DNA of 64,000 nt, from NCBI GenBank assembly GCA_035291545.1, contig DATDRW010000069.1:2348-66347 (forward strand), given 5' to 3'. The number at the start of each line of letters is the position of its first letter. Positions within the stretch are counted from its first letter, which is position 1. Below, piece after piece: positions 7,072 to 22,371 of the stretch. The position numbers and the translations under genes were made by a program. Under the pieces are notes generated by a model. That model did not search any database. It was not told where the DNA came from and was given only the letters and a program-made list of their open reading frames with translations. This stretch comes from Acidimicrobiia bacterium. Its GTDB lineage: Bacteria > Actinomycetota > Acidimicrobiia > Spongiisociales > UBA11373.

Positions 7072-7082
7072 GCCGGGCGATG

Positions 7083-7136
7083 GTAGGAGAGACCGGAGGC
7101 CGGATACCAGATGCCGGATACCGGAGGCCGGATACC
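7083..7136. repeat. Tandem array of CCGGAGGCCGGATACC-type 14-mers immediately upstream of the polA start.
   Basis: The sequence is ccggaggccggataccagatgccggataccggaggccggataccggaggccgg. It is inverted relative to the array at 7662-7706. Confidence 0.55.
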
Positions 7137-7148
7137 GGAGGCCGGAAC

Positions 7149-7445
7149 TCAGGGGTCGGAGTCGTGGGGGCCGAGCCTCTCCAGCAGCTTGGCCCGTTTC
7201 GTGTTCAGGCGATCGATCCGGGCGGACAGGTCCGCCACCAGCCCGCGGAAGCGCGCCACGTCGCGGCTCGTGTCCCGGGCGTCCTCGCGCTCGATCGGGC
7301 CCCCCACTGCAGCGTCGCGCACGGCATCGTCCTCGAGATGCTGGTGGACCCCAAGCTCCTCCTCGGTCTGCCGAACCACCTCGCGCAGACGGGCGATCTC
7401 GTCGGTGACGGCGAAGAGCCGCTTCTCCAGGCGTCGCACCCGCGC
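7149..7445 (-). CDS. Hypothetical small Arg/Glu-rich coiled-coil protein, roughly 95 aa with an uncertain start.
   Basis: ORF 7149..7622 overlaps the tRNA at its 5' end, so the start was trimmed to GTG about 7445 (VRRLEKRLFAVTDEIARLREVVRQTEEELG...). The heptad-like charge pattern looks protein-like, but I do not recognise a family. Confidence 0.3.
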   Translation of the reverse strand, partial: ARVRRLEKRLFAVTDEIARLREVVRQTEEELGVHQHLEDDAVRDAAVGGPIEREDARDTSRDVARFRGLVADLSARIDRLNTKRAKLLERLGPHDSDP

Positions 7446-7499
7446 ATGGTACGGACCAGATGCCGATCCGGGGCAGCGGGTCGTATCATCCGGCGACGA

Positions 7500-7582
7500 A
7501 CCGGGATGGCGGAATGGAAGACGCGGCGGACTCAAAATCCGTTGGGCGAAAGCCCGTGGGGGTTCGACTCCCCCTCCCGGTA
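7500..7582 (+). tRNA. tRNA-Leu (anticodon CAA)
   Basis: The cloverleaf can be read directly. The acceptor stem is ACCGGGA/TCCCGGT and the anticodon loop CTCAAAA gives anticodon CAA. A long variable arm (GTTGGGCGAAAGCCCGTGG) is typical of class II Leu tRNAs. The T-arm is GGGGGTTCGACTCCCCC, the discriminator is A, and CCA is not encoded. Confidence 0.75.
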
Positions 7583-7589
7583 CGCGAGA

Positions 7590-7740
7590 GGCACCAGGCA
7601 ATAGGCACCAGGCATTAGGCACCAGGTACGCACGGACGTTCTGATTTCGCGATACCGACCCTGACCGGTCTCCGGCATCCGGTCTCCGGCATCCGGCCTC
7701 CGGCCTCCGCCTCTGGTGCCTGGTGCCTCGTGCCTGGTGC
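7590..7740. repeat. Composite inverted-repeat element downstream of tRNA-Leu and of nadE, about 150 bp. It is built from three GGCACCAGGCA(a/t)TA units, then two CCGGTCTCCGGCAT units, then four CCTGGTGCC units.
   Basis: The left arm (GGCACCAGG repeats) is the reverse complement of the right arm (CCTGGTGCC repeats), so a long imperfect hairpin can form. The position suits a bidirectional terminator for the converging tRNA and nadE. Confidence 0.55.
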
Positions 7741-7746
7741 CTCTCA

Positions 7747-9450
7747 CTACGCCCTGAACCCGTTCGTGATCGGCAGCCTGCGGTCGCGTCCCAGTGCCTT
7801 GGTCGTGATCTTCACGCCCGGCGCCGCCTGGCGGCGTTTGTACTCATTGCGATCGACCATCCGGGTCAACCGCTCCACTGTGGCCCGGTCAAAGCCCTCG
7901 GCCACGATCTGGGCGATGCTGCGGTCCCGTTCGATGTAGCCGCGGAGAATCTGGTCCAGGGTCTCATAGGGCGGGAGGGAATCCGTATCCAGCTGGCCGG
8001 GCCGCAACTCGGCCGACGGCGGCTTGTCGATCGTGGCCTGAGGAATCACCTCGCCGTCGCGATTGCGCCACCGGGCGAGGTCGTACACCAGCGTCTTCCA
8101 CACATCGACGAGCACCGCGTAGCCCCCCACCATGTCACCGTAGATAGTGGAGTACCCGACCGACATCTCCGACTTGTTGCCGGTGGAGACCACCATGTGC
8201 CCGAACTTGTTGGAGAGCGCCATGAGGATCGCCCCCCGGATCCTCGCCTGCAGGTTCTCCTCGGTGACGTCGGGCGAAGTGCCGGTGAACACGGCTTCCA
8301 GCGTTTCGAGGAATCCTGTGAACGGCGGCTCGATCGGGATCTCGTCGAAACGGATGCCGAGGTTGCGTGCCAATACCCGCGAGTCCTCCACCGCGCCGGC
8401 GCTGGAGTAGCGGGAGGGCATGGTGATCCCCCACACCGCCTCTGCACCGAGGGCGTCGGCGGCGAGGGTGGCCGTGAGCGCCGAGTCGACGCCGCCGGAA
8501 AGGCCCACCACCACACCGCGGAAGCCGTTCTTGCGAACGTAGCCCCCCAGCCCGCAGACGAGCGCCCGATACACCTCGGCGACTTCATCGAGCGGCTCGT
8601 GAGCCGGCGGCGGCGGCTCCGGATCACCCTCGAGTAGGTCACCGGTGGAAACCACGATCGCACCCACCCCCGAGCGGCCCTCCTCGCGCAGTGGAACGTC
8701 CACCCAGAAGCGCTCCTCGGCGAACTGGGGTGCCCGGTACAGCAGATATCCCGAGGCGTCGAACACCATGCTCTGTCCGTCGAACACCAGCTCGTCCTGA
8801 CCGCCGACCAGATTGAGGTACACCACCGGCACCCCGGCCTCGCGGGCGCGGGCGGCCAGCATCGCCTCCCGCTCCCGGCCCTTTCCGCGGTGATAGGGCG
8901 AACCGTTGATGTTCACCAGGATGTCCGCCCCGTTTCCCGCCTGCTGTGCCGGAGGCCCGTCGGGCACCCAGATGTCCTCGCACACCGAGACACCGACCAC
9001 CGCTCCGTTGATCTCCCAGAGCGCGCCCGGCCGGGTGCCCACGGCAAAGTAACGAGCTTCGTCGAAGACGCCGTAGTTGGGAAGACGGCACTTGTGATAG
9101 ACGCCGCGTACCCGGCCTCCCTGGATCAGCGCGGCGGCGTTGTGCACCCGGACGTGCCCGGCGTCGTCGGGTGGCAGCGACGACCGGTCGACGAACCCCA
9201 CGACCGTCGTCGTGTCGCCGGCATCCTTCGCCAGGCGGTGGAGCGCCTCGATGTTGGCATTGACGAACCCCTCGCGCAGCACCAGGTCCTCCGGCGGATA
9301 CCCGGTGATCGCCAACTCGGGCACGAGGAGGACGTCGGCCTGGCACTCCTCGGCCCATGCCATCGCCCCGCGGATGATCTCAGAGTTCGCCTCGATGTCG
9401 CCGACGGTGAGGTCGACCTGGGCGCAGGCGACTCGGAGGAAGTCGGTCAT
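7747..9450 (-). CDS. nadE: Glutamine-dependent NAD+ synthetase
   Basis: There is an N-terminal CN-hydrolase domain and a C-terminal NAD synthetase domain with the PP-loop GLSGGVDSALTA. The ORF ends with tandem TAG-TGA stops. Confidence 0.9.
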   Translation of the reverse strand: MTDFLRVACAQVDLTVGDIEANSEIIRGAMAWAEECQADVLLVPELAITGYPPEDLVLREGFVNANIEALHRLAKDAGDTTTVVGFVDRSSLPPDDAGHVRVHNAAALIQGGRVRGVYHKCRLPNYGVFDEARYFAVGTRPGALWEINGAVVGVSVCEDIWVPDGPPAQQAGNGADILVNINGSPYHRGKGREREAMLAARAREAGVPVVYLNLVGGQDELVFDGQSMVFDASGYLLYRAPQFAEERFWVDVPLREEGRSGVGAIVVSTGDLLEGDPEPPPPAHEPLDEVAEVYRALVCGLGGYVRKNGFRGVVVGLSGGVDSALTATLAADALGAEAVWGITMPSRYSSAGAVEDSRVLARNLGIRFDEIPIEPPFTGFLETLEAVFTGTSPDVTEENLQARIRGAILMALSNKFGHMVVSTGNKSEMSVGYSTIYGDMVGGYAVLVDVWKTLVYDLARWRNRDGEVIPQATIDKPPSAELRPGQLDTDSLPPYETLDQILRGYIERDRSIAQIVAEGFDRATVERLTRMVDRNEYKRRQAAPGVKITTKALGRDRRLPITNGFRA

Positions 9451-9480
9451 ACGACCCAGGGTAGGGCGCCGGCCCGGCGT

Positions 9481-9503
9481 CTTCTGCTCGGTCGGAGCAG
9501 AAG
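9481..9503 (-). terminator. Hairpin cttctgctc-ggtcg-gagcagaag between the trpA stop and the nadE start.
   Basis: A 9-bp perfect stem with a 5-nt loop. No U-tract follows, which is common in high-GC genomes. Confidence 0.3.
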
Positions 9504-9534
9504 GGCGTCGGCCGTCGGTCCGCTGCCGGCCCGG

Positions 9535-10346
9535 TCACCGCTGCACCCGCACGGCCCGAGCCAGATCTGCCACCGCCGCAGAGAGTGAAGCTGCCGCTGC
9601 GGCGACGCTCTCCGCATCGAGGACACGCCGCACCAGCGCCGAACCCACGATGACTCCGTCGGCGAGTGCGGCGGCATCGGCCGCCGCCTCGGGACCGGAG
9701 ATGCCCACCCCGAGCACGACGGGGATGTCGCTCAGGGCGCGGATCCGGGCGACGAGGGCCGCGCCGTGGCTGCTGGACCGGCGACGTTCGCCGGTGACTC
9801 CCATTTCGGCGATGCCGTACACGAACGGGGGTCGGGCATCCACCACCCGCCGGAGCCGATCTGTGGCGGTGGTCGGCGCGGCGAACTGCACGAGTCCGAT
9901 CCCCGCGGCCCGGCACGCCTCTGCGATCTCGGCGGACTCGTCGACGGGGAGGTCGGCAACGATCAGCGCGGCAGCCCCGGCGTCGGCGGCGGCCCGGCAG
10001 AACGCGGCCGCACCCTTGTGCAGCACCGGGTTGACATAGGTCATCACCGCCACCGGGAGCCGCACCACATCCGTCACCGCAGCGATCACCTCGAGTCCCT
10101 TGTGCAACGTCATACCGGCGGCAAGGGCACGTTTGCCCGCCTCCTGGATGACCGGCCCGTCCATGAGCGGGTCGGCGTACGGCATCCCGATCTCGAACCC
10201 GTCGGCTCCCGCCTCCGCCATCGCCGCGAACAGCGACACCGAGGCGGCGGTGTCGACAAGCCCTGCCATGAGATACGGCAGCAGCAGGGCACGCCCCTCG
10301 GAGCGGGCCGCGGCGAACGCGTCGCCGAAGCTCACGTTCGCGCGCG
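9535..10346 (-). CDS. trpA: Tryptophan synthase alpha chain
   Basis: The C-terminal 270 aa of ORF 9535..10494 are TrpA-like ([39 protein letters not shown]). The start is taken as the GTG at VSFGD, overlapping the trpB stop. Confidence 0.85.
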
Positions 10347-11504
10347 CCACGCCGCCACCTGATCGACGTCCTTGTCGCCGCGGCCACTCAGGCACATCAC
10401 GACCGTCTTGTGGGCGAGCGCGACCCGTTCCCGGGCGATCCAGGCGAGGGCGTGCGCCGGTTCCAGCGCCGGGATGATGCCTTCGGTACGGCACAGCAGG
10501 TCCATGGCGGCGACGGCTTCGCGGTCGGTGGCCGACTCGTAGCGGGCGATGCCGGCGTCCTTGAAGTAGGCATGTTCCGGCCCGACGCCGGGGTAGTCGA
10601 GCCCCGCCGAGATCGAATGCGCCTCGAGCACCTGGCCCTCATCGTCCTGGAGCAAGTAGGTGCGGGCACCGTGCAATACGCCCGGCGAACCGGCGGAGAG
10701 CGATGCACCGTGGCGGCCGGTGGCGATTCCATCGCCTCCCGCTTCCACACCCACCAGTCGGACCCCGCTGCCGACGAACGGGTGGAACATGCCCATGGAG
10801 TTCGACCCGCCCCCGACGCAGGCGACCACGACATCGGGTACCCGGCTCCCCAGTTGAGCGATCGTCTCCTCCCCGATCACCCGTTGGAACTCGCGCACGA
10901 TCCAGGGAAAGGGGTGGGGGCCGACCACCGAGCCGATGATGTAGTGCGTCGTCTCCACGGTGGCCACCCAGTCCCGGAGGGCGGCACTCACCGCATCCTT
11001 CAGGGTCCCCGCCCCCGACGTCACCGGGGTCACCACGGCGCCGAGCATCCGCATCCGTTCCACGTTGAGGGCCTGGCGCCGGATGTCGACCTCCCCCATG
11101 AACACCTCACACTCGAGCCCGAGGAGGGCACAGGCGGTGGCGGTGGCCACCCCGTGCTGGCCGGCCCCGGTCTCGGCGATCACCCGCGGTTTGCCCATCC
11201 GCTGGGCGAGCAACCCCTGCCCGACCGTGTTGTTGATCTTGTGTGCGCCGGTGTGGGCGAGATCCTCCCGCTTCAGCAGCAGATCGATCCCCAACTCCGC
11301 AGACAACCGTCGTGCCGGATACAGCGGCGTCGGTCTCCCCACGAAGTCCCTCAGCAGTGCAGCCAGCTCCGACTGGAATCCGGAGTCGGCGACGGCGGCG
11401 ACGAATGCCGACTCCAGTTCGGCGAGCGCCGGCATCAGCGTCTCCGGGGCGAACGCTCCCCCGTACTCCCCGAACCGCCCGCGGTGGTCGGGTCGAGCCG
11501 TCAT
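10332..11504 (-). CDS. trpB: Tryptophan synthase beta chain
   Basis: From [16 protein letters not shown] onward, ORF 10332..12245 has the PLP lysine motif HTGAHKINN and GGGSNSMG. The ATG at 11504 overlaps the trpF stop as ATGA. The 247 aa upstream of it is a shadow read across trpF. Confidence 0.9.
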
Positions 11505-12100
11505 CGGGCCGCCTCGACGAACTGCCGCATCAGGTCGGGATCCTTGATCCCCGGCGACCGCTCCACACCGGAGGAGACGTCGACCCCCCACGCGCCGGTG
11601 GCCGCGATCGCCCCGGCCACCGACGCGGGGGTGAGTCCACCGGCGATCACGAAGTCGCCCCCGAGCCCGCCTGCCAGGTCCCAGGCGAACCGTCGGCCGG
11701 TTCCGCCGTGCACACCCGTGCCACCGGTGTCGAGAAGGGGACGCGCCCCTTCGGGCACCACCGTCAGGTCCGGTGTCCCGGCGGTGACCGGAACCGGGAA
11801 CAGCACCGCGAGACCCGCTCTGAGGGCGGCGCGGGCGGCGTCCGCGGAATGCACACCGTGCGGCTGCACACCGGACACCCCGGCGAACACCGCGGCGGCG
11901 ACCACCCACTCGGGATCCGAGTCGACCGTCAGCAGGTACCGCTCGACGGGTATCCCGGCGGCAAGGTCGACAACCCGTTGCAGAGGCACGAACCGAGGCG
12001 AGACCGGGGCGACCACGAAGCCGACTGCGTCGGCGCCGGCGCTCACCGCGGCCTCGACGTCCCGGCGCCGGGTCATCCCGCACAGCTTCACCCAGGTCAC
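11501..12100 (-). CDS. trpF: Phosphoribosylanthranilate isomerase
   Basis: The 199-aa ORF begins [18 protein letters not shown], a TrpF-like (beta/alpha)8 N-terminus. It sits between trpC and trpB, with ATGA overlaps at both junctions. Confidence 0.8.
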
Positions 12101-12888
12101 GAGCGACCTCGCAACGACTCCACGAATCCTGCGGGATCCGGGTGTCGAACCGCGGCCTCGCCGACGAGCACGGCGTCGTAGCCGGCGGCGGCCATCCGGG
12201 CCGCGGCGGCCGGAGTCGACACCCCGCTCTCGGCGACGGCGACACAGCCCTCCGGGAGAAAGCGGCGCAGCGACTCTGCGGTGGCGAGGTCCACGGTGAA
12301 CGACCGGAGGTCCCGGTTGTTCACACCGACGATGGAGGCGCCGATCGCCGCAACACGACGTGCCTCTCCTTCATCGTGCACCTCGACGAGTGCGTCGATG
12401 CCGGCGGCCTCGGCCGCCGCCTGCGCCTCGCACAACTCGGCGTCTGACAGGATGGCGGCGATCAGAAGCACGGCGTCGGCACCCATGGCCCGCGCCTCCC
12501 ACACCTGCGCCGGATGGAGCACGAAGTCCTTGCGCAGCACCGGGAGCGACACCCGGCTGCGCACGGTCGCCAGGTCGCCGGGGAGTGCCCCGAAGTGATC
12601 CGCCTCGGTGAGCACCGACACCCCCGCGGCACCTCCCCGTTCATAGGCGGCCGCCAACGCCGCGGGGTCGAGGTCGGGGGCGATGGCACCCGCCGAGGGA
12701 GAGCGCCGTTTCACCTCGGCGACGATGGAGAGACCGCCTCCGGTGAGGGCGTCGGAGAATCCCCGCGGCGGAGGGGCCATTGCCGCGGCGGCGCGCAGTG
12801 TCGCCTCACGGGCGATCACTCCGGGGAGCCGGGAGCGGACGGAGGCAAGTATCTCGGGCAGCACCGGCGCATCGTAGAAACCCACCCG
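12097..12888 (-). CDS. trpC: Indole-3-glycerol phosphate synthase
   Basis: The ORF carries [22 protein letters not shown] and [11 protein letters not shown]. The start is trimmed to GTG ([13 protein letters not shown]), 4 nt after the kinase stop. Confidence 0.85.
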
Positions 12889-12892
12889 CCCA

Positions 12893-14278
12893 TCACCGGG
12901 CCAAATCGGGGATGCTGACCCGGATCGCGGTGCCGGCGCCGGGAGCGGTGACCACCTCGGCGTCCCCGCCCATCGCCGCAACGAGCTCACGCACGATCGA
13001 GAGACCGAGCCCACTTCCCTCGGGGCGGATCGGGCGATAGCGCGTCGCCACGTAGAGCCGCTCGAAGACGTGGGGGACGTCGGCAGGGTCGATGCCGGGA
13101 CCGCTGTCGGCGACGTCCATCACCAGTCGGCTGCCGCGACGGTGCAGTCCGAGCGTGACCGTGCCGGCTTCCGGGGTGTACCGGAGGGCGTTTTCGAGGA
13201 GGTTGCCCGCCACCTGGGCGATGCGGTCGGGGTCGACGTCAACGATGCCGACTTCCTCGACGTCGGAGGCAAGCTGCACCCGGGCGGACTCCGCCCTGCC
13301 CCGAAACCCCTCGAGCACACCCTCGAGGTGACCGGCGAGATCGACGGGTTCCGGACGCAGGGTGAACTCCGGAGCCTCGATGCGTGACAGGAGCATCAGG
13401 TCCTCGACCAGCCGGCGCAGCCGATCCGATTCGGTGCCCAGAACCCGGGCGACCCGCTCCACGTCCTCGGGGGGGATGCGGCCTTCTTGCATCGCCTCGG
13501 CGTAGCCGGAGATCGTGGTCAGCGGGGTGCGCAGGTCGTGGCCCACCGACACCAGGAAGGCCCGCTCACGGCGACGGGCCGCCTCCAGCTGCGCTGCCAT
13601 CTCGTTGAAGGCGACGGCCACCTCGGCGAGCTCGTCGCCACCATCCACCGGGACCCGCACCGTGAGATTCCCGGCGGCCACGGCCCTCGAGGCATCGTGG
13701 AGCTCCCCCAGGCGCCGCCCGGCGAACCGGCTGAAGGAGCCGGCGAGCAGGGCGGCGAGCAGCAGTGCCAGCGCCAGGGCCCAGGCGAACCGCAGCAGCA
13801 CCTCGCTCCACGGAATCAGTTCCAGACTGGTGCCGATCACCACGACGAGGCTTCCCCGATCACCGATGCGGAACGGCTGGGCCACCGCGGTCACGGACTC
13901 CCCGCCCACCTCGGCGTCGAAGCTGAAGGAATCTGCCAGGTCGGCGATTCCCGGCACCTGGGTGATCAGCTCACCCCCATCCCCCAGCACCGTGACCGTC
14001 CCCCGGGGACCAACGATGGCGGCTTCGACGAACTCATGGCCCCCGACGAGGGCGACGTCGCGGAGGATCTGGACGAGCCTGCCGCGCTCGCCGAGCCGGC
14101 CGCCCTCCGGTGGCAGCTCCGCCTCGATGAGACGCGCCGTCGCCGCCGCCTGCCGGGCGAACTCGGCCCGCGCCGAGGCCTCGACGGAGCGGCTGATCAG
14201 CATGGCGGCGGCAAAGCCGCCGACCACGAGGGTGATCACCGCCACCGCCACCATCCCCCAGAAGAAGCGGCGTCGCAT
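12893..14278 (-). CDS. Sensor histidine kinase with two transmembrane segments, a HAMP domain, a HisKA domain and an HATPase_c domain.
   Basis: The H-box is VSVGHDLRTPLTTISGYAEAM. N and G boxes (NALRYT, DSGPGID, GSGLGLSIV) are present, and there are transmembrane segments at the N-terminus and around residues 160-185. Confidence 0.85.
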   Translation of the reverse strand: MRRRFFWGMVAVAVITLVVGGFAAAMLISRSVEASARAEFARQAAATARLIEAELPPEGGRLGERGRLVQILRDVALVGGHEFVEAAIVGPRGTVTVLGDGGELITQVPGIADLADSFSFDAEVGGESVTAVAQPFRIGDRGSLVVVIGTSLELIPWSEVLLRFAWALALALLLAALLAGSFSRFAGRRLGELHDASRAVAAGNLTVRVPVDGGDELAEVAVAFNEMAAQLEAARRRERAFLVSVGHDLRTPLTTISGYAEAMQEGRIPPEDVERVARVLGTESDRLRRLVEDLMLLSRIEAPEFTLRPEPVDLAGHLEGVLEGFRGRAESARVQLASDVEEVGIVDVDPDRIAQVAGNLLENALRYTPEAGTVTLGLHRRGSRLVMDVADSGPGIDPADVPHVFERLYVATRYRPIRPEGSGLGLSIVRELVAAMGGDAEVVTAPGAGTAIRVSIPDLAR

Positions 14279-14304
14279 CTAGTGCCCCGTCACGTGTCGG
14301 GGAA

Positions 14305-14979
<675 letters not shown>

Positions 14980-14998
14980 GCTCACCTCCCCGCGTCGA

Positions 14999-15886
14999 TC
15001 ATCGGAACGGACTGTTCGAAGACTGTGAAGCACCGCCGAGACCGCCCCGCACGATCTCCTCGACCGTCCCGGGCGCCTCCCCGCCGTCCCAGCGTACGAG
15101 CACGGGGGCACCCGGGGTCGCTTCCCGGCGGAGCAGCGCCAGGGCGGCGGCGCCTCCCTCTCTGGGCGCCACCGTCCCGAGCACACCAACCACCACGCCG
15201 CCGACGACCACCTCGGCCCCCCGCGGGGGACGCCCCGCGGCAACGACCACCCGGCGCAGCATCCGATTGACGTGTCCCCGGCTGTCGATCCTGGCCACCA
15301 GTTCCTGTCCGACGAAACAACCCTTGGTGAAGGACACGGCTTCGGGCACGAGGCCGGTCTCCTGGGGGATGGTGCCGTCGTCGACGTCGCTGCCGAACCG
15401 CGGCTCGCCGGCGGCAATGCGATGGGCGGCCAGGGCCGCGTCGCCCAGGCGCGGGCCCGGCGGCGCCTCGACGGCGGCCACCAGACGCCGCGGTGCACCC
15501 GATGGAATCACCGCCTGGAGCACCGACCCGTCCTCGAACCATCCCGAACCCGGCTCGGGCACGCCGCCCCACACGGAGTGCACCGGACGCTCGTCCGTTC
15601 GCAGGTTCGCCACCACCCGGAACCGGAACCGATCGAGCTCGGCGACCACGGCGGCCCCGGTGCCGGCCGGCGTCACCACGCCGACCGACTCCGCGCCGCG
15701 CAACACCCACAGGATCGCCCGCAGCTTGCCCCGGGGCTCGAGGAGCAATGACCGCCTCACCTCTCCGGGGGCCATTCCCCGCACGTCCTGGCTGACCTGG
15801 CCGTCGAGGAACCCCACGGCATCGGCGCCCTCGACCCACACCAGCTCGTCCGTGCCGATCCCGATCCCGGCCGCGAGCTCAAACAT
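14999..15886 (-). CDS. YgfZ/GcvT-like folate-binding protein
   Basis: From MFELAAGIG onward, ORF 14999..16084 carries the YgfZ signature KGCFVGQE. ATG 15886 overlaps the trpE stop as ATGTTTGA. The upstream 66 aa is a shadow read across the trpE 3' end. Confidence 0.65.
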   Translation of the reverse strand: MFELAAGIGIGTDELVWVEGADAVGFLDGQVSQDVRGMAPGEVRRSLLLEPRGKLRAILWVLRGAESVGVVTPAGTGAAVVAELDRFRFRVVANLRTDERPVHSVWGGVPEPGSGWFEDGSVLQAVIPSGAPRRLVAAVEAPPGPRLGDAALAAHRIAAGEPRFGSDVDDGTIPQETGLVPEAVSFTKGCFVGQELVARIDSRGHVNRMLRRVVVAAGRPPRGAEVVVGGVVVGVLGTVAPREGGAAALALLRREATPGAPVLVRWDGGEAPGTVEEIVRGGLGGASQSSNSPFR

Positions 15887-17345
15887 CGTCGGCGGCGGCG
15901 ATGGCCGCAAGGACCGCGGCGGCCTTCTCGCGGCATTCCTCGTACTCGCGCTCGGGCCGGCTGTCCGCCACCACCCCGGCACCGGCCTGCACCCACGCCT
16001 TCCCGTCGGCGGCGACCATCGTGCGCAGTGCAATGGCGGTGTCCATGTTGCCCGAGAAGTCGAGGTAGCCGACGGCTCCGGCATACGGCCCGCGGGCCAC
16101 CGGCTCGAGCCGGTCGATGATCTCCATCGCCCGCACCTTGGGGGCGCCGGTGACGGTGCCGTGGGGAAACGTGGCGCGGAGCACGTCGACGGGCCCGATC
16201 CCGTCCCGCACCGTTCCCGACACCCCCGAGACGATGTGCATCACGTGCGAGTAGCGCTCGATCACCATGAGCTCGTCGACGGACACCGTTCCGAATCGCG
16301 ACACCCTGCCCAGGTCGTTGCGGGCGAGGTCGACGAGCATCACGTGCTCCGCCCGCTCTTTGGGATCGGCGAGCAGCTCGGCCTCGAGGGCGGCATCCTC
16401 GCCGGGAGTGGCCCCGCGGCGTCGGGTACCGGCGATCGGCCTGCTGTGCACCTTGCGGTCACGCATCCTCACCATCAGCTCCGGGGACGAGCCGGCGATC
16501 GCCAATCCTGGAGCCCTTACGAAGAACATGTAGGGCGATGGGTTGAGCAGACGGAGCGCCCGGTACACCGAGAAGGGATCGCCGGAGAAATCGACCTCGA
16601 AGCGAACCGAGGCGACGATCTGGAAGGCGTCGCCGGTACGGATGTGGCGGATCGCCCTTTCGACGGCGGCGCCGTATTCGACGGCGGTCATCGACGCCGA
16701 AACCGCCGGACGGCCGGCGAACGAGGGAACCGTCCGCACCTCCCTGCCGGGTGCGGTGCCGAGCGCGGTCGCCGCCTGCTCCAGGCGTAAGGCGGCATCG
16801 TCGTAGTCGGCGGCAGGATTAGGGCCCACGACCACGTTGCGGATGAGCCGGATCCGTTGTCCGAACCGATCGAACGCCGCAAGGCTCCCGACACCCAGCC
16901 ACAGCATCTCGGGAAGGCCGCGGTCGTCGGTGGGGCGATGCGGCAACCGTTCGACGTACCGCACCGCGTCGTACCCGAGATACCCGACCACGCCGGTGTG
17001 CAGCGGCGGCATGCCGGGGAGCTCGGGCACGGTGCATCGCCGCAACAGGCTCTCGAGGGCGATGAAGGGATCGCTGCGGTCGATGGGGAACTGCGCTCCC
17101 TCGAGCTCCACGACCCCGTCACGGGAGCTGAGGATGAACAGCGGGTCCCAGCCGAGGAAAGACCAGCGCGCCCAGCGGTCTCCCCCCTCCACCGACTCGA
17201 GCAGGAACGAGGGGCCGCTCCCGGCGAGAGCGCCGAATGCGCCGACGGCCGTGACGGTATCGCCGAGGACGTCGGCCCAGACCGGCACGATCGCGTGCCC
17301 GCCGGCCAGACGGACGAACTCCTCCCGGGAGGGACTCAGGCGCAT
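15879..17345 (-). CDS. trpE: Anthranilate synthase component I
   Basis: The 488-aa ORF has chorismate-binding motifs (LLESVEGG, SPELMVR, IAGTRRRG, GAVGYLDFSGNMDTAIALRT). Confidence 0.9.
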   Translation of the reverse strand: MRLSPSREEFVRLAGGHAIVPVWADVLGDTVTAVGAFGALAGSGPSFLLESVEGGDRWARWSFLGWDPLFILSSRDGVVELEGAQFPIDRSDPFIALESLLRRCTVPELPGMPPLHTGVVGYLGYDAVRYVERLPHRPTDDRGLPEMLWLGVGSLAAFDRFGQRIRLIRNVVVGPNPAADYDDAALRLEQAATALGTAPGREVRTVPSFAGRPAVSASMTAVEYGAAVERAIRHIRTGDAFQIVASVRFEVDFSGDPFSVYRALRLLNPSPYMFFVRAPGLAIAGSSPELMVRMRDRKVHSRPIAGTRRRGATPGEDAALEAELLADPKERAEHVMLVDLARNDLGRVSRFGTVSVDELMVIERYSHVMHIVSGVSGTVRDGIGPVDVLRATFPHGTVTGAPKVRAMEIIDRLEPVARGPYAGAVGYLDFSGNMDTAIALRTMVAADGKAWVQAGAGVVADSRPEREYEECREKAAAVLAAIAAADDV

Positions 17346-17388
17346 CGCCGCCGAGGGTAGGACTGCTTCCGGCGGATGCCCCGATGAA

Positions 17389-18138
17389 TCAGACGTTCCA
17401 GAGAAACCCGGGGAGGACCTGCTGGAACCACCGGTTGAGATCGACGAGCCGCCCGGTGACCATGAGCAACCCGAACCCGGCCAGCAGCACTCCCGACGTG
17501 ACCGTGATCGCGGTGAAGTGCCGCTTGAACCACCCGAAGGCCGAGTAGGCCTTGGTCATCGCCAGACCGGCGACGACGAAGGGGACCCCGAGCCCGAGCG
17601 AGTACACGAACAGGAGGAACATTCCCTGGGCGATCGTCTCCTGGGTACCGGCGACGGTGAGGATCGCGCCGAGCATCGGCCCGAGACACGGGGTCCAGCC
17701 GAAACCGAAAGCGACTCCCATCACCGGCGCCGCCCACGCCCCAAGCCGCGACGGGCGCACCTCGAGACGCCGCTCCCGCGCGAACGGGTTGAGCAGCCGC
17801 GGGTTCCACAACGCGCTCACCGCGACAAAGGCCCCGAACCCGACCACCAGCCATCCGGCGACCGTGGTGATGGTGCCCTGGTTCTGATTCAGCATCTTCC
17901 CCACCGAGGTGGCGGTCGCGCCCAGGGCGACGAACACCGCGGTAAACCCGGCGACGAACAACAGCGTGACCCGCAGCATCTTTCCCACCGATGCCTTGCC
18001 CTCTGCGAGGTCGGAGGCGGAGTAGCCGGACATCATCGACAGGTACCCGGGGAGCAAAGGAAGCACGCACGGCGACAGGAACGACAGCGCTCCGAACACG
18101 AATGCGGCGAACACATTGACGCTGGCGATCTCCACGAT
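17389..18138 (-). CDS. ccdA: Cytochrome c-type biogenesis protein CcdA (DsbD-like thiol:disulfide transporter)
   Basis: The first transmembrane segment holds the Cys pair (FLSPCVLPLLPGYLSMMSG). A second Cys, in WTPCLGPMLG, sits in a later transmembrane segment. The ORF-track start at 18216 overlaps the divergent csaA-like start, so the start was trimmed to an internal GTG and remains uncertain. Confidence 0.7.
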   Translation of the reverse strand: MVEIASVNVFAAFVFGALSFLSPCVLPLLPGYLSMMSGYSASDLAEGKASVGKMLRVTLLFVAGFTAVFVALGATATSVGKMLNQNQGTITTVAGWLVVGFGAFVAVSALWNPRLLNPFARERRLEVRPSRLGAWAAPVMGVAFGFGWTPCLGPMLGAILTVAGTQETIAQGMFLLFVYSLGLGVPFVVAGLAMTKAYSAFGWFKRHFTAITVTSGVLLAGFGLLMVTGRLVDLNRWFQQVLPGFLWNV

Positions 18139-18205
18139 GCTCCCGGGATGGGCGTGCCGTGCAACGCTACCGGCGCCCCGGCGGTTCCCGGTAATGTCGT
18201 TCGCC

Positions 18206-18532
18206 ATGCCGACCATTGCCGAATGGCATCAGTTCGCGGTCCGCACCGGGATCGTCGTACGCGCCGAGGCCAACGAGGCGGCGCGTCATCCGGCCTACCG
18301 GATGTGGATCGACTTCGGGGACCTCGGCATCCTCCAATCCTCCGCAAAGATCACCGACCACTACCGCGCCGCCGAGCTGGTCGGCACCCAGGTGATCGCC
18401 GTGACGGGGTTCGCCCCGCTCCACGTCGCCGGGTTTCGATCGGATGTGCTCGTGCTCGGCGCCCTCACCGACAGCGGGGTGGCGCTGGTGCGTCCCGACC
18501 GGCCGGTTCCACCCGGCAGCACGATCGCTTGA
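18206..18532 (+). CDS. CsaA-like tRNA-binding domain protein (Trbp111/MetG C-terminal domain fold)
   Basis: From MPTIAEWHQFAVRTGIVVRAE...GTQVIAVTGFAPLHVAGFRSDVLVLGA, the pattern matches CsaA/tRNA-binding OB-fold proteins. The start was trimmed from ORF 18116 because ccdA overlaps there. Confidence 0.5.
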   Translation: MPTIAEWHQFAVRTGIVVRAEANEAARHPAYRMWIDFGDLGILQSSAKITDHYRAAELVGTQVIAVTGFAPLHVAGFRSDVLVLGALTDSGVALVRPDRPVPPGSTIA

Positions 18533-19785
18533 CCCGGCTGGCGCTGCTCCGCCCCTCGCGACCGCTCCAGCGTCGCGAGACCGCGGCCCTCGCCCTCTTT
18601 GCGCTCATCGCCCTCGCCCAGGGCTGGACGGGTGCCGCCATCACCCACGTCCTCCCCTTCGTCCAGGACGACTACGCGCTCAGCGACGCCGAGGTGTTCG
18701 ACCTGATGACCGTCATCCGGGTCACCTCGCTCCTCGCCATCGCCTTCTCCTGGTGGGGTGATCACCGCGGGCGCCGGATGCCCCTGCTGCTGGCGTTTGC
18801 ACTGCTTCCGACGGCGACGCTGCTGAGCGCCGTCACCTCCGGCGCCGGGATGCTGACCGCGACCCAGGCGGCGGCCCGGGTCGGGACCATCGCCATCAGC
18901 GGCCTCGCCCTGGTCGTGCTTGCCGAGGAGGTCGGCCCCGAGGTGCGCGGCTACGCGGTCGGCATCTACGCCCTGGTCGGCTCGATGGGGACGGGCCTGG
19001 GACTGGCGCTCCGTCCCCTGGGTGCGGGTGACACCGACGGGTGGCGCGTGCTGTTTGCCCTCAGCGCGGTGCCGCTGCTCGGTCTGCCCCTCCTCGTCCG
19101 CCGACTTCGTGAGTCGAGGGCTTTCACCCCTCAGCCGTCGCGTCCACGCCTGACCGCGGTGCTCCGCGGCACCCATGCATCCCGGTTTTGGCCGCTTGCG
19201 GGACTGTCGTTTGCGGTGTCGGCCTTCACCGCTCCCGCAGCCAACCTGGCGTTGGTTCGATTGGAGAACGATCTCGGCTGGTCGGCGGCCGGCGCCTCGC
19301 TGCTCCTGGCCGCCACCAGCGCCCCCGGGGTGATCCTGGGAGTGCTCGGCGGCGGCCGTCTCGCCGACGTCTTGGGACGGCGGCCGACCGAGGCCCTCTC
19401 GCTGGTGGTGGGCGTGGCGGGCGGCTTTGCCTTCTACCTGATCGATGGGGGCTGGATGATGGCGGCGGGAGTAGGTGTGTCCAATCTCGGAGCGTTTGCG
19501 TTCGCTCCGGCGTTCGCCGCGCACCGGGCAGAGTTGTTCCCCACCGGGATCCGGGCCACCGCCGTCGCCTGGATCGTGAACGCATCGATCCTCGGAGGAA
19601 TCGCCGGGTTCGCCGCCGGAAGGTTCGTCGTCGACGCCTGGGGGATCTCCGGCACGGTCGCCGCACTCGGGGTCCTGGTGCTCGCCGCCACCGCGTTGAT
19701 CGCACCGCTCCCCGAGACCAGGGGACTCATCCTGGAGGTGAGCGGAACGGACCCCTCGGGCTCACCCTTCTCCATGCCAGGGTGA
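18531..19785 (+). CDS. MFS-type transporter
   Basis: This is the C-terminal roughly 418 aa of the artefactual 982-aa ORF 16837..19785. It has 10-12 predicted transmembrane segments with Gly-rich loops. The TTG start overlaps the csaA-like stop as TTGA. Confidence 0.55.
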
Positions 19786-21043
19786 TTGCCCGCACGACGA
19801 GCAGGGTGGCGATCCCCCACCACACCCCGGATAGGCCCCATCCCAGAGGCAGCACGGCGAGCATCACACCGGCGGCGAGAGCCGACGCGGCGACCATCGC
19901 TCCCGCCAGGTAACGGAAGTCACCGGCGCCGATGAACACCCCATCGAGCACCCACACGACCGCCCCGAGGGGCTGCAACAGCGCTACCACCCACAAGATG
20001 CCCTCCACCGCCCGGCGAACCGGTGGATCGGCCCCGAACCATCCCGGGAGGAAGGGCGCCAGCATCAGAAGGACGACACCGGCGACTACGCCCGCACCGA
20101 CGCCGAGTACCAGCAGGCGGTCGGCGACCTCGGTGGCTTCCCGGTGCCGTCCGGCGCCCAAGAGACGACCCACCACCGCCTGGGCCGCGATCGCAAACGC
20201 GTCGAGCGCCAGAGCCGTGAAGAGAAACACCTGCATCAGCACTTGATGGGCGGCGATCGCCGTGTCGGACACCCGGGTGGCGACCGAGGTCGCCAGGGTG
20301 AACGCCACCATCAACGCGGTGGTGCGGATGGCGAGGTCGCGACCCACCACCAGGAAGGACCGCACCTCGCCCGCCACGGGGCGGGCGCCTGCCAGGCCGT
20401 AGCGCCGCCGGCCCCGGGCGAAGAGAACCAGAAAGGCGGCGGCTCCCCCCCATTGTGCGATCACCGTCGCCCAGGCGGCACCGGCCACCCCCCAGCCCGC
20501 CCCGAAGATGAGCAGCGGGTCGAGCACCAGGTTGACCAGGTTCACCCCGACGGCCACCAGGAAGGGGGTACGCGTGTTCTGGTATCCCCGATACGCCCCG
20601 TGCCCGACCCGCATCAGGAGCACGGCCGGGGCGGCCAGCGCCCGAACCCGGACGTACTCGACCGCGGCCGCGGCGACCTCACCGTTGGCGCCGAATGCCC
20701 CGATGATGTCCTCTCCGAAGCCACGGAGCACCAAGACCACCACACTCCCTCCGCAGGCGGCAAGAGTGAGAGCCGTGACCACGGCACGACCGGCGGTCGC
20801 GGTCTGCCCGGCGCCCACCGCCCTGGCGACCACCGTCGTCGTGCCGTACTCGAGGAAGTTGAAGAGGAAGAACGAAACGGTGAAGAGGGCCGTCGCCACC
20901 CCGAGCCCACCGAGGGCGTCGGTTCCGATGCGGCCGACAAACGCCGTGTCGACCAGGCTGAGCAGCGGGTCGGCGATGAGTGCCCCCAGCGCCGGGAGCG
21001 CCAACGCGACGATCTCCCGGTCGTGGGACGAGCGCAGCCGGAT
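19727..21043 (-). CDS. MATE-family efflux transporter
   Basis: It has 12 transmembrane segments and N-terminal MATE motifs (ALALPALGALIADPLLSLVDTAFVGRIG). The GTG start overlaps the nth stop as GTGA. Confidence 0.75.
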   Translation of the reverse strand: MRLRSSHDREIVALALPALGALIADPLLSLVDTAFVGRIGTDALGGLGVATALFTVSFFLFNFLEYGTTTVVARAVGAGQTATAGRAVVTALTLAACGGSVVVLVLRGFGEDIIGAFGANGEVAAAAVEYVRVRALAAPAVLLMRVGHGAYRGYQNTRTPFLVAVGVNLVNLVLDPLLIFGAGWGVAGAAWATVIAQWGGAAAFLVLFARGRRRYGLAGARPVAGEVRSFLVVGRDLAIRTTALMVAFTLATSVATRVSDTAIAAHQVLMQVFLFTALALDAFAIAAQAVVGRLLGAGRHREATEVADRLLVLGVGAGVVAGVVLLMLAPFLPGWFGADPPVRRAVEGILWVVALLQPLGAVVWVLDGVFIGAGDFRYLAGAMVAASALAAGVMLAVLPLGWGLSGVWWGIATLLVVRAITLAWRRVSPRGPFRSPPG

Positions 21044-21693
21044 CACCGGAGCGTCTTGTCGGGATACGGGCAGCGGTCGGTGAGCACGCAGTCGAAGCAC
21101 CGGGGCTTCTTGGCGTCACAGGTGTCCCGGCCGAACTGGATGAATCGCATCGAGATCCCCGACCACGCCGCCTCCGGGTACAGGTCCTTCAGCGCAGCCT
21201 CCACCTTGACCGGGTCGACTGCAGCGGTGAGACCGAGACGGCGAGACACCCGGCCGACGTGGGTGTCGACGGCGATGGCGGGGTGTCCGAACGCTTCGGC
21301 GAGCACCACGCTCGCGGTCTTCCTCCCCACACCCTTGAGGGAAACCAGCCGGTCGAGATCGTCGGGCACCACGCCCGAGAAGCGCTCCACGAGGTCGGCG
21401 GAGAGGTCGAGGATGGCCCTCGTCTTCTGGCGATAGAACCCGGTCGAATAGACCACCGCCTCGACCTCCTCCGGGTTGGCCGCGGCGAGGTCGTGGGGTG
21501 TGGGCCACCGGGCGAACAGCACGGGCGTGACCCGATTCACGGTCTCATCGGTGGTCTGAGCGCTGAGCACGGTCGAGACCAGCAACTGCCAGGGGTTGCG
21601 GTAGTCGAGCGCGGTCCGGACGCTCCGGTAGCGCCGCTTCAGCCGATCGAGGATGGTGCGGGCATTCCTCCGCTCGGCCTGAGACGCGGTCAT
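21043..21693 (-). CDS. nth: Endonuclease III
   Basis: It has a HhH-GPD motif (LVSLKGVGRKTASVVL) and the C-terminal 4Fe-4S cysteine cluster CFDCVLTDRCPY. Confidence 0.9.
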   Translation of the reverse strand: MTASQAERRNARTILDRLKRRYRSVRTALDYRNPWQLLVSTVLSAQTTDETVNRVTPVLFARWPTPHDLAAANPEEVEAVVYSTGFYRQKTRAILDLSADLVERFSGVVPDDLDRLVSLKGVGRKTASVVLAEAFGHPAIAVDTHVGRVSRRLGLTAAVDPVKVEAALKDLYPEAAWSGISMRFIQFGRDTCDAKKPRCFDCVLTDRCPYPDKTLR

Positions 21694-21744
21694 CGGGCGG
21701 CGATGGTACCGGGGCGGCGCCCGACGGTACCCTCGCGAGCCGTG

Positions 21745-22371
21745 TCCTCACCCGCGACCACACCAGGTGCCGCCGCCCTGGAGCGCGCGGTGCGCGAACG
21801 CGGCAGGGTGGAGGGATCGCTCGTCAAGGTCGACGACTTCCTCAACCACCAGGTGGATCCCGCCCTGCTCGATCTCATCGGGCAGGACATCGCTGACCGC
21901 TGGGAGGGTGAGCACATCGATCTCGTGGTCACCGCCGAGGCGAGCGGAATCCCGCCGGCACTGACCGTGGCCCGCAGCCTCGGTGTTCCGATGCTCTATG
22001 CCAAGAAGTACCTCCGGACCACTACCGAGCGTCCGTCGTACGTGCGGGAGGTCGCCTCTCCGACCAAGGGCACCGAGTACCGGGTGGAGATCACCCGCCG
22101 ACTGCTCCCGGGAGGCCGCCGGGTACTCGTGGTCGACGACTTCCTCTCCGGCGGCCGTACCGCCGAGGCTCTCGGAGAAATCATCGAAGAGGCCGGTTGC
22201 TCGGTTGTGGGGTTCGCTTTCGTAATCGAGAAGTCGTTCGTGGAGGGGAGGAGCCGGCTTCTCGACCGAGGGTGGCGGGTCGACTCCCTGTTGCGCGTCA
22301 CCTCGCTCGAGGGCGGACTCGGCCTCGACACCGCTCGATTCGTTCCCGAGCACCGCGACGGCCCCGGCTAA
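21745..22371 (+). CDS. xpt: Xanthine phosphoribosyltransferase
   Basis: It reads VKVDDFLNHQVDPALL and has the PRPP-binding loop VLVVDDFLSGGRTAEAL. The start is GTG about 21745 or ATG 21703. Confidence 0.75.
   Translation, partial: SSPATTPGAAALERAVRERGRVEGSLVKVDDFLNHQVDPALLDLIGQDIADRWEGEHIDLVVTAEASGIPPALTVARSLGVPMLYAKKYLRTTTERPSYVREVASPTKGTEYRVEITRRLLPGGRRVLVVDDFLSGGRTAEALGEIIEEAGCSVVGFAFVIEKSFVEGRSRLLDRGWRVDSLLRVTSLEGGLGLDTARFVPEHRDGPG

Follow-up and report, generated by a model that had tools for sequence, protein, structure and literature searches.

The 64-kb window analyzed here, the whole stretch of 64,000 nucleotides from an Acidimicrobiia bacterium, contains a trp gene cluster in which a two-component system lies between trpE and trpCFBA. 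The system is composed of an OmpR/PhoB-family response regulator (RR) and a membrane sensor histidine kinase (HK). Our reading, to which we give a probability of about 0.6, is that the cluster is a compact string of at least five separately promoted units, ccdA, trpE-ygfZ, RR-HK, trpCFBA and nadE, and that RR-HK is an ancient, self-regulated pair that occupies the gap between the halves of a split trp cluster. A first-pass annotation of this DNA had named the same genes, with ygfZ and RR-HK tightly packed amid the trp genes on one strand, and the Pfam and NCBIfam assignments as well as, with small corrections, the gene junctions agree with it. It had also regarded the genes as very likely co-transcribed as one unit. 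Here we depart from it, because conserved -10 elements precede trpE, trpC and nadE, and a conserved box with a -10-like hexamer precedes RR.

In the arrangement that we propose, an extracytoplasmic function (ECF) sigma-type promoter would drive ccdA, and a leaderless promoter with the hexamer TACCCT would drive trpE, to which ygfZ would be translationally coupled. RR-HK would be transcribed from an activator-type promoter in which an 11-bp-phased direct-repeat box is followed, after a spacer of 7 nt, by a weak -10 element. The kinase would sense an extracytoplasmic signal by means of a conserved loop of ~130 amino acids, and RR, once phosphorylated by HK, most likely binds its own box, which would amount to positive autoregulation. 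Further leaderless promoters would drive trpCFBA (TACGAT) and nadE. RR-HK would be an independent signalling module with a regulon located mostly elsewhere, and its only likely effect on the trp genes would be read-through from the RR promoter into trpCFBA.

The response regulator box and other predicted cis-elements

The box was defined from aligned RR-upstream sequences of 24 loci, from which a 20-nt position weight matrix (PWM) was built. The consensus is a direct repeat, (C)TTCACA-N5-(C)T(T/C)(A/G)ACA, with the ACA cores 11 bp apart, and a third unit, (T/C)CGAAC, is often present 11 bp further on. In the window the box scores 27.7 bits and is the sole match of at least 12 bits in all 64 kb. 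Within 2.1 Mb of relatives' loci, nearly all matches of at least 17 bits sit 25-60 nt upstream of an RR gene, and matches were also obtained in loci outside the training set of the matrix (20.4 bits in L014, 23.0 in L016 and 20.0 in L116). The distance between box and RR is kept in 26 loci whatever lies upstream, be it the 3' end of ygfZ, the DNA past the ygfZ stop, a ccdA-RR, trpE-RR or GH1-RR spacer, or a divergent MFS/RR spacer. Because this distance is constant across differing upstream DNA, the box belongs to the RR gene. It is conserved as DNA and not as protein, since it lies in ygfZ codons in the window but past the ygfZ stop in L083 and L088. Two (L014, L016) of five distant loci that have the pair on the opposite strand carry the same box; in L016 RR and trpC are divergent, ~140 nt apart, and the box is located in the spacer that they share. 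Judged from these patterns, the box is the candidate binding site of RR itself and would be the seat of autoregulation.

A -10-like hexamer of the form NANNNT is found exactly 7 nt past the box in 17 of 26 loci, the weak hexamer of the window among the matches to this form. By analogy, a box over the -35 region combined with a weak -10 is the architecture of an activator-dependent promoter. The predicted RR promoter of the window would give rise to a ~12-nt leader carrying the Shine-Dalgarno sequence GGGAGG (14985-14990). In L081, L087 and L106 the NANNNT hexamer is positioned 6 nt before the RR ATG, so that the RR mRNA would be leaderless in these loci. Two relatives, L083 (7119-7172) and L088 (7080-7142), hold a mini open reading frame (ORF) of 5-8 codons (ATGGAGCTGGCGCGATGA; ATGCAGCAACCGATGACGATGCGATGA) between the box with its -10 and the RR start. 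With a start 6 nt past the -10-like hexamer and a stop codon that overlaps the ATG of RR, it may act as an upstream ORF, leaderless itself, to which the translation of RR is coupled.

A scan of the window with the PWM revealed no RR box upstream of trpE, trpC, nadE or ccdA. The best scores there (-2.6, -7.1, -11.7 and -4.7, respectively) are at the background level of random 120-nt windows (-3.8 +/- 4.2, maximum 7.3). The OmpR-type boxes that the first-pass annotation had suggested looking for upstream of trpE and nadE were thus not found with this PWM, which derives from the RR box. That RR-HK governs the transcription of the trp genes is not supported: there is no box at the trp promoters, and the pair is kept in about 11 loci from which the trp genes are gone. 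For these two reasons a role of RR-HK as a dedicated trp regulator seems unlikely.

The trp genes and nadE have conserved elements of their own. The hexamer TANNNT, with its end 5-10 nt ahead of the start codon, is present at trpC in 19 of 21 loci, at nadE in 14 of 14, and at trpE in all nine loci where trpE is not preceded by hisI. The control counts are 0/19 for HK, 0/19 for trpB, 0/16 for trpA, 1/30 for RR and 1/18 for ccdA. None of the sites at trpE, trpC and nadE is accompanied by a Shine-Dalgarno sequence. All nine loci with ccdA before trpE have TA(C/G)CCT 6-9 nt ahead of trpE in an otherwise divergent spacer, and the trpC hexamer is kept even if the gene upstream is encoded on the opposite strand. 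In L081 and L106, which have no trp genes at this locus, the same TANNNT hexamer now precedes ygfZ. This conservation suggests that trpE, trpC and nadE have separate promoters that produce leaderless transcripts. The short gaps of this locus are therefore no proof of a single transcript, because conserved -10 elements and the RR box split the genes. In the transcription start site map of M. tuberculosis, TANNNT is the -10 element of leaderless mRNAs, and 26% of genes that have a primary start site fall into the leaderless class (PMC3898074). The hexamers described here resemble these promoters in their position 5-10 nt before ATG or GTG and in the missing Shine-Dalgarno sequence. Unlike the mapped starts of M. 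tuberculosis, the promoters here are predicted, and they are located in 28-84-nt spacers or in the 3' end of the upstream gene. Promoters placed like this within a co-directional gene string would create nested sub-operons.

The ECF-sigma-like motif upstream of ccdA is no rarer in the window than expected by chance (2 found versus 1.24 expected). Its conservation is what draws attention: in 13 of 19 loci GGAAC-N16-18-(A/C)CGT(T) is placed ~50 nt ahead of the start of ccdA, and the distant L003 and L009 are among these loci, along with L083, L086-L089, L101, L102 and L106. The motif resembles SigH/SigR/SigE-type promoters and would place ccdA under a stress sigma factor.

Consensus scans of positions 7000-19000 returned neither intrinsic terminators nor sigma-70-type promoters, and both scans have low sensitivity at 70% GC. 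A stem-loop that lacks a U-tract, and that the terminator scan did not call, came up when the spacer between trpA and nadE was folded with RNAfold; it may be the terminator ending the trpCFBA unit. A trp leader, attenuator, T-box or riboswitch did not come up in an Rfam search of 7000-22000 at permissive thresholds, and the spacers are too short for such elements. Since no terminator was found between HK and trpC, transcripts from the RR promoter probably run on into trpCFBA. In relatives without trp genes such read-through would reach nadE. Some relatives also have long hairpins in the ccdA-trpE or HK-nadE spacers. Spacers of relatives contain long inverted repeats of short tandem units (GCAATGGGCAA.../TTGCCCATTGCCCATTGCC, CAAGAGCCAAGGTCAAGAGCC/GGCTCTTGACTCTTGAC, CTGGCTGCTGGCTGC.../GCCAGCAGCCAG) or tandem TCTGTCC, at L086 4787-4961, L002 9784-10000, L083 9369-9444, L088 9375-9505 and upstream of trpC in L001. 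They are repetitive extragenic palindromic (REP)-like elements or terminators and are absent from the spacers of the window.

Gene order among relatives

Gene order was compared in two surveys. In one, the proteins of the window were searched by tblastn against 80 genome loci encoding TrpE relatives; in the other, gene contexts were compared among ~21 orthologous loci with an HK at least 57% identical. The closest relatives of the window are uncultured Acidimicrobiia metagenome-assembled genomes (MAGs), and the best TrpE in a one-genome-per-species GTDB set is 63% identical. At 100% identity, the same organism is represented by three contigs from JGI metagenomes and one from ENA. For HK, 120+ full-length orthologs with 57-89% identity were found.

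The RR-HK orthologs share a common backbone, thyX...nth, MatE, MFS, tRNA_bind / ccdA ... nadE, polA, and on this backbone four states of gene order can be distinguished. The full layout is present in the window, L084/85, L086, L089, L095-L098, L100/101 and L105. A second state, ccdA-ygfZ-RR-HK-nadE without trp genes, is seen in L081, L083, L087, L088 and probably also in L102 and L106. The order is reduced to ccdA-RR-HK-nadE in L103, L104 and L107, and to RR-HK-nadE in L090 and L108. Thus, about half of the ~21 orthologous loci share the layout of the window, and ~11 keep RR-HK without flanking trp genes. Since the window arrangement recurs in ~10 independent metagenomic or MAG loci, it is not due to chance. 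The linkage seen by the first-pass annotation in this one stretch is therefore conserved in relatives, which speaks against a recent insertion.

In a bootstrapped, distance-based tree of RR and HK, loci with and without trp genes interleave in clades that have 96-100% support. The outgroups carry trp genes. On this combination of tree and gene order, trpE and trpCFBA were removed from the locus at least 3-4 separate times, with RR-HK being kept each time. It follows that the fixed element of the locus is the two-component system and not the trp genes. Wherever nadE is present it comes last, behind trpA or, in loci without trp genes, immediately behind HK. The HK-nadE gap is only 10 nt in L081 and L087, and here the -10 hexamer TAGCCT overlaps the HK stop codon.

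More distant loci show further variants. L001 and L003 have ccdA-trpE-RR-HK-trpCFBA and lack ygfZ; L002 has ccdA-trpE-ygfZ-trpCFBA and lacks RR-HK. L012, L014, L016, L021 and L024 have hisI-trpE-ygfZ, then HK and RR encoded on the opposite strand, frequently with GH1 next, and then trpC(F)BA. L033 has trpE-ygfZ-(GH1)-trpCFBA, and Ilumatobacteraceae-like genomes have trpE-ygfZ only. In L012, L014 (12279-13469), L024 and L033, the gap between RR (or ygfZ) and trpC thus harbours a further non-trp gene, the GH1 beta-glucosidase gene, which is oriented against the trp genes. An RR/HK pair between trpE(-ygfZ) and trpC is thus found in many Acidimicrobiia lineages, whose TrpE proteins are 50-63% identical. 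Among the 80 loci with TrpE relatives, neither a ygfZ nor an RR/HK insert beside trpE was found outside Acidimicrobiia-like genomes. Judged from these gene orders, the association of RR/HK with trp is old, as distant Acidimicrobiia carry it too, often with the pair on the opposite strand.

Of all features of the cluster, the start/stop linkage between trpE and ygfZ is the one most widely conserved. The two genes overlap by 8, 4 or 1 nt, or lie no more than 2 nt apart, in 17 of the 23 Acidimicrobiia loci compared. Most loci that lost trpE kept ygfZ, which is there coupled to ccdA (overlapping it by 4 nt in L087 and L088) or preceded by a trpE-type -10. Because ygfZ is retained where trpE is lost, its function is independent of TrpE.

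Genes and proteins of the locus

The coordinates of the genes and cis-elements are listed in the table. All named genes from trpE to nadE are on the minus strand, and each identity is backed by Pfam and NCBIfam. Two starts were revised. For trpC the most likely start is GTG 12864, 21 nt inside the longest ORF; the protein then has 255 amino acids, compared with 254-256 in the homologs, and the HK-trpC spacer becomes 28 nt instead of ~7. The gaps of 0-26 nt given by the first-pass annotation are exceeded by this spacer. For ccdA the most likely start is GTG 18135, which yields 248 amino acids, the same length as in all homologs. The longest ccdA ORF (start 18216) would overlap the divergent tRNA_bind (CsaA-like) gene at 18206-18532; the revised start leaves a 70-nt divergent spacer toward this gene, with the ECF-like motif inside.

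At the junctions, the overlap of the trpE stop and the ygfZ start is ATGTTTGA (15879-15886), followed by a gap of 19 nt between ygfZ and RR and one of 26 nt between RR and HK. Start and stop codons overlap by 4 nt at trpF/trpB (ATGA), and at trpC/trpF and trpB/trpA (GTGA). Hence, the overlaps reported earlier for trpE/ygfZ and trpF/trpB are confirmed, and the one at trpC/trpF is GTGA and not ATGA. Both trpG and trpD lie outside the cluster. The flanks are made up of housekeeping genes, with rpsA, polA and tRNA-Leu on one side and tRNA_bind, MFS, MatE, nth, thyX and dnaE on the other. No tRNA gene other than that for tRNA-Leu(CAA) is present in the window; it is flanked by polA and nadE and lies on the plus strand (7500-7583). 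Since housekeeping genes flank the cluster, the locus is not a mobile element. A recent insertion was likewise ruled out by this backbone, the same synteny in relatives and the even GC content across the region (70% for the window).

Features of the cluster and predicted cis-elements, in order of transcription (window coordinates)
Feature	Position	Strand	Remarks
ECF-sigma-like motif, GGAAC-N17-CGTT	18163-18188	-	~28 nt upstream of revised ccdA start
ccdA (DsbD_TM thiol-disulfide membrane protein)	17389-18135	-	PF02683; start revised to GTG 18135
TACCCT, predicted leaderless trpE promoter	17354-17359	-	8 nt upstream of trpE ATG
trpE, anthranilate synthase component I	15879-17345	-	PF00425 Chorismate_bind, PF04715 Anth_synt_I_N; TIGR00564
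YgfZ/COG0354-family gene	14999-15886	-	GCV_T; TIGR03317; motif KGCFVGQE
Direct-repeat box CTTCACAGTCTTCGAACAGT	15011-15030	-	Within final 30 nt of ygfZ; 32 nt ahead of RR ATG
GATGAT, weak -10-like hexamer (NANNNT)	14998-15003	-	7 nt after box; overlaps ygfZ stop
OmpR/PhoB-family response regulator (RR)	14305-14979	-	PF00072, PF00486
Membrane sensor histidine kinase (HK)	12893-14278	-	TM1, ~130-aa loop, TM2, HAMP, HisKA, HATPase_c (TM, transmembrane segment)
TACGAT, predicted leaderless trpC promoter	12871-12876	-	6 nt upstream of GTG 12864, in HK-trpC spacer
trpC	12097-12864	-	Revised start; Pfam IGPS
trpF	11501-12100	-	Pfam PRAI
trpB	10332-11504	-	Pfam PALP
trpA	9535-10335	-	Pfam Trp_syntA
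Stem-loop, possible terminator	9481-9503	-	9-bp stem CTTCTGCTC...GAGCAGAAG
TACCCT, predicted nadE -10	9458-9463	-	7 nt before nadE ATG
nadE	7747-9450	-	Pfam NAD_synthase, CN_hydrolase

The RR receiver domain (PF00072, residues 7-116, E = 1.2e-27) has the residues E11/D12, D55 (in LLD-IGLPGMDG) and the lysine of VTKPF, and the DNA-binding winged helix is a Trans_reg_C domain (PF00486, residues 151-222, E = 4.3e-26). The nearest structures are RegX3 (2oqr, 198 bits) and MtrA (2gwr, 172 bits), and full-length matches include BaeR, PhoP and PrrA. The score stays below the cutoff of every named NCBIfam equivalog (YycF 218.8/340, MtrA 210.1/300, CreB 208.7/273, PhoB 204.6/296.2, CseB 197/350). With all equivalog cutoffs missed and RegX3 as nearest structure, sequence comparison assigns RR at the family level only, to OmpR/PhoB. 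Around RR-HK, in the window as in relatives, there is no downstream lpqB, which MtrAB would have, and no pst or phoU nearby.

HK has the HAMP (PF00672), HisKA (PF00512) and HATPase_c (PF02518) domains of a class I (HisKA) membrane kinase. H247 is invariant across 46 orthologs, and there are invariant residues in the extracytoplasmic loop as well. By hydropathy, this loop is flanked by transmembrane segments at residues ~5-29 and 160-183. The AlphaFold2 model has a confidence score (pLDDT) of 83 and folds the loop into two helices and five strands. Foldseek matches of the model in the PDB were limited to the kinase core (HK853) or to WalK/YycG, and no sensor ligand could be derived from them.

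The YgfZ protein scores 76.1 with the CAF17-like model TIGR03317 (cutoff 49), 47.6 with the full-length E. coli-type model NF007110 (cutoff 219), and only weakly, 37.7 bits, with the Pfam GCV_T folate-binding domain. Its nearest PDB sequences are 3ttg, the E. coli YgfZ entries 1nrk/1vly, and the CAF17 entry 6qe3. The motif KGC[FY]xGQE is present in all 23 trpE-adjacent homologs. Taken together, model score, GCV_T fold signature and motif liken the protein to E. coli YgfZ and to Iba57 (CAF17) of yeast and human. TrpE passes the TIGR00564 (trpE_most) cutoff by a small margin (519 versus 517.7) and stays below the cutoffs of the PabB models (361.9 versus 408.55 for PabB-clade2, 297.9 versus 328.4 for TIGR00553). 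An identity as PabB, which would account for a link to folate, was ruled out on these grounds.

Alternative readings and comparison with known systems

The first-pass annotation had also considered that read-through from the trp operon drives the two-component system. In its strict form, RR-HK would have no promoter of its own and the sensor would be made whenever trpE is transcribed. The short ygfZ-RR gap with its Shine-Dalgarno sequence, the missing terminator and a ygfZ-RR gap that is always at most 62 nt in this clade would fit, and some read-through is possible. However, box and -10-like hexamer are kept where the upstream gene is a different or divergent one (L090, L103/104/107, L001/L003, L014, L016), the hexamer directly precedes the RR ATG in L081, L087 and L106, and the box lies within ygfZ codons in the window and past the stop in L083 and L088. 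We therefore regard the strict form as unlikely. Quite unlikely, in our view, is that the eight genes form one operon with the two-component system as a dedicated regulator that tunes tryptophan synthesis to an external signal. The tight packing without predicted terminators, the recurrence of RR/HK between trpE(-ygfZ) and trpC at TrpE identities of 50-63%, the divergent RR and trpC of L016 with a box in their spacer, and the fact that any RR-promoter transcript in the window would enter trpCFBA all agree with such a role. It is contradicted by the ~11 orthologous loci that have the pair but no adjacent trp genes, a state with at least 3-4 independent origins, by background scores upstream of trpE and trpC, by the conserved -10 elements of these two genes, and by relatives in which the pair is on the opposite strand with a GH1 gene between it and trpC.

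A functional unit ccdA-ygfZ-RR-HK, that is a redox or envelope-stress module with the trp genes as interleaved passengers, is suggested by the contiguity of these four genes in loci without trp genes, the ccdA/ygfZ overlap of L087 and L088, the position of RR-HK directly after ccdA in L103, L104 and L107, the conserved ECF-type motif at ccdA, and the ties of COG0354 to oxidative stress and Fe/S repair (PMC3223725). We find this very unlikely, since deeper Acidimicrobiia have hisI-trpE-ygfZ and the pair without ccdA, L090 has RR-HK without ccdA or ygfZ, L001 and L003 lack ygfZ, and no RR box precedes ccdA. The B. subtilis res operon, in which cytochrome-c maturation genes precede ResDE, would be a loose parallel.

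Doubtful, in turn, are two further proposals, one that YgfZ is functionally tied to anthranilate synthase in Acidimicrobiia and the other that RR-HK feeds an extracellular signal into trpCFBA by read-through. That trpE and ygfZ are coupled throughout the class, in marine Ilumatobacteraceae-like genomes as well as in the clade of the window, suggests stoichiometric co-production. TrpE itself has no Fe/S cluster. COG0354 proteins bind folate, are required by certain Fe/S enzymes for their activity and have been linked to oxidative stress and Fe/S repair, and their published gene clustering is with Fe/S proteins (PMC3223725). Unlike there, ygfZ is here start/stop-coupled to trpE across a whole class. 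We found no report of a link between YgfZ and TrpE, as the first-pass annotation had already stated, nor of a two-component system inside a trp cluster. If the tie between YgfZ and TrpE were true, COG0354 would have a role connected with chorismate, anthranilate or folate metabolism and not with Fe/S repair alone. The read-through coupling, to nadE in relatives without trp genes, would be an unusual control of amino-acid or NAD biosynthesis by an envelope signal.

Several points weigh against our own reading of five or more separately promoted units around a self-regulated RR-HK pair. The promoters and binding sites are predicted from sequence conservation. The -10 after the box is weak, and RR keeps a Shine-Dalgarno sequence close behind ygfZ, so that much of the RR mRNA may stem from transcripts that start at the trpE promoter and read through. 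With no terminators found between the units, a long transcript may coexist with shorter ones. The class-wide occurrence of RR/HK beside trp, including the divergent arrangement with a box in L016, is not predicted by neutral synteny alone. For the pairs on the opposite strand, the sole indication of orthology is the box shared by L014 and L016; their sensor loops are 17-23% identical to that of the window, and L012 has no clear box. Finally, the absence of trp genes in the genomes that lack them here is established at this locus only.

The cluster is a variant of the split actinobacterial trp cluster, and in the literature that we found this variant has not been described before. In Mycobacterium and Streptomyces the order is hisI ... 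trpE - membrane protein Rv1610 - trpC - trpB - trpA - lgt. The likeness lies in the separation of trpE from trpC-(F)-B-A by non-trp genes, in trpG and trpD being elsewhere, in the hisI before trpE of deeper Acidimicrobiia, and in the missing attenuator leader (no Rfam match). In contrast to the mycobacterial type, as was noted in the first-pass annotation, the inserts are a trpE-coupled YgfZ and an OmpR/HAMP pair and not a membrane protein; moreover, trpF is present, ccdA takes the place of hisI, and nadE follows trpA. 

The RR box belongs to the class of sites that OmpR-family regulators bind. The PhoP and MtrA boxes of M. tuberculosis are TCACAGC-type repeats. The PHO boxes of Streptomyces PhoP consist of 11-nt direct repeat units, G(G/T)TCAYYYR(G/C)G, near the -35 region (PMC2275107). 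The RR box resembles the latter in its two to three 11-bp-phased repeats with a TTCAC/TTAC core just upstream of a weak -10, and the first repeat in L103, L104 and L116 (GTTCACCCGGG in L103; GTTCATCCCGG) is a near-perfect fit to the PHO consensus. A site ahead of the regulator's own gene is also what is seen in autoregulated OmpR/PhoB-family systems. Unlike Streptomyces PhoR-PhoP, RR is nearest to RegX3 and under the PhoB cutoff, the gene order is RR then HK, there is no pst or phoU nearby, and the kinase, which lacks a PAS domain, has a large extracytoplasmic loop.

For the annotation of high-GC Actinobacteria rich in leaderless transcripts, the locus is a caution that operons are easily over-called from short gaps. 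Spacers of 28-84 nt, and even the last codons of an upstream gene, appear to hold complete promoters. The box provides a candidate RR site for an uncharacterised two-component system that is widespread in Acidimicrobiia, and genome scans with it could define the regulon. The coupling of trpE and ygfZ throughout the class is not explained by the current function of YgfZ/COG0354. Tryptophan auxotrophy that recurs in uncultured Acidimicrobiia may be reflected in the repeated clean removal of trp genes from around a signalling module that stayed in place.

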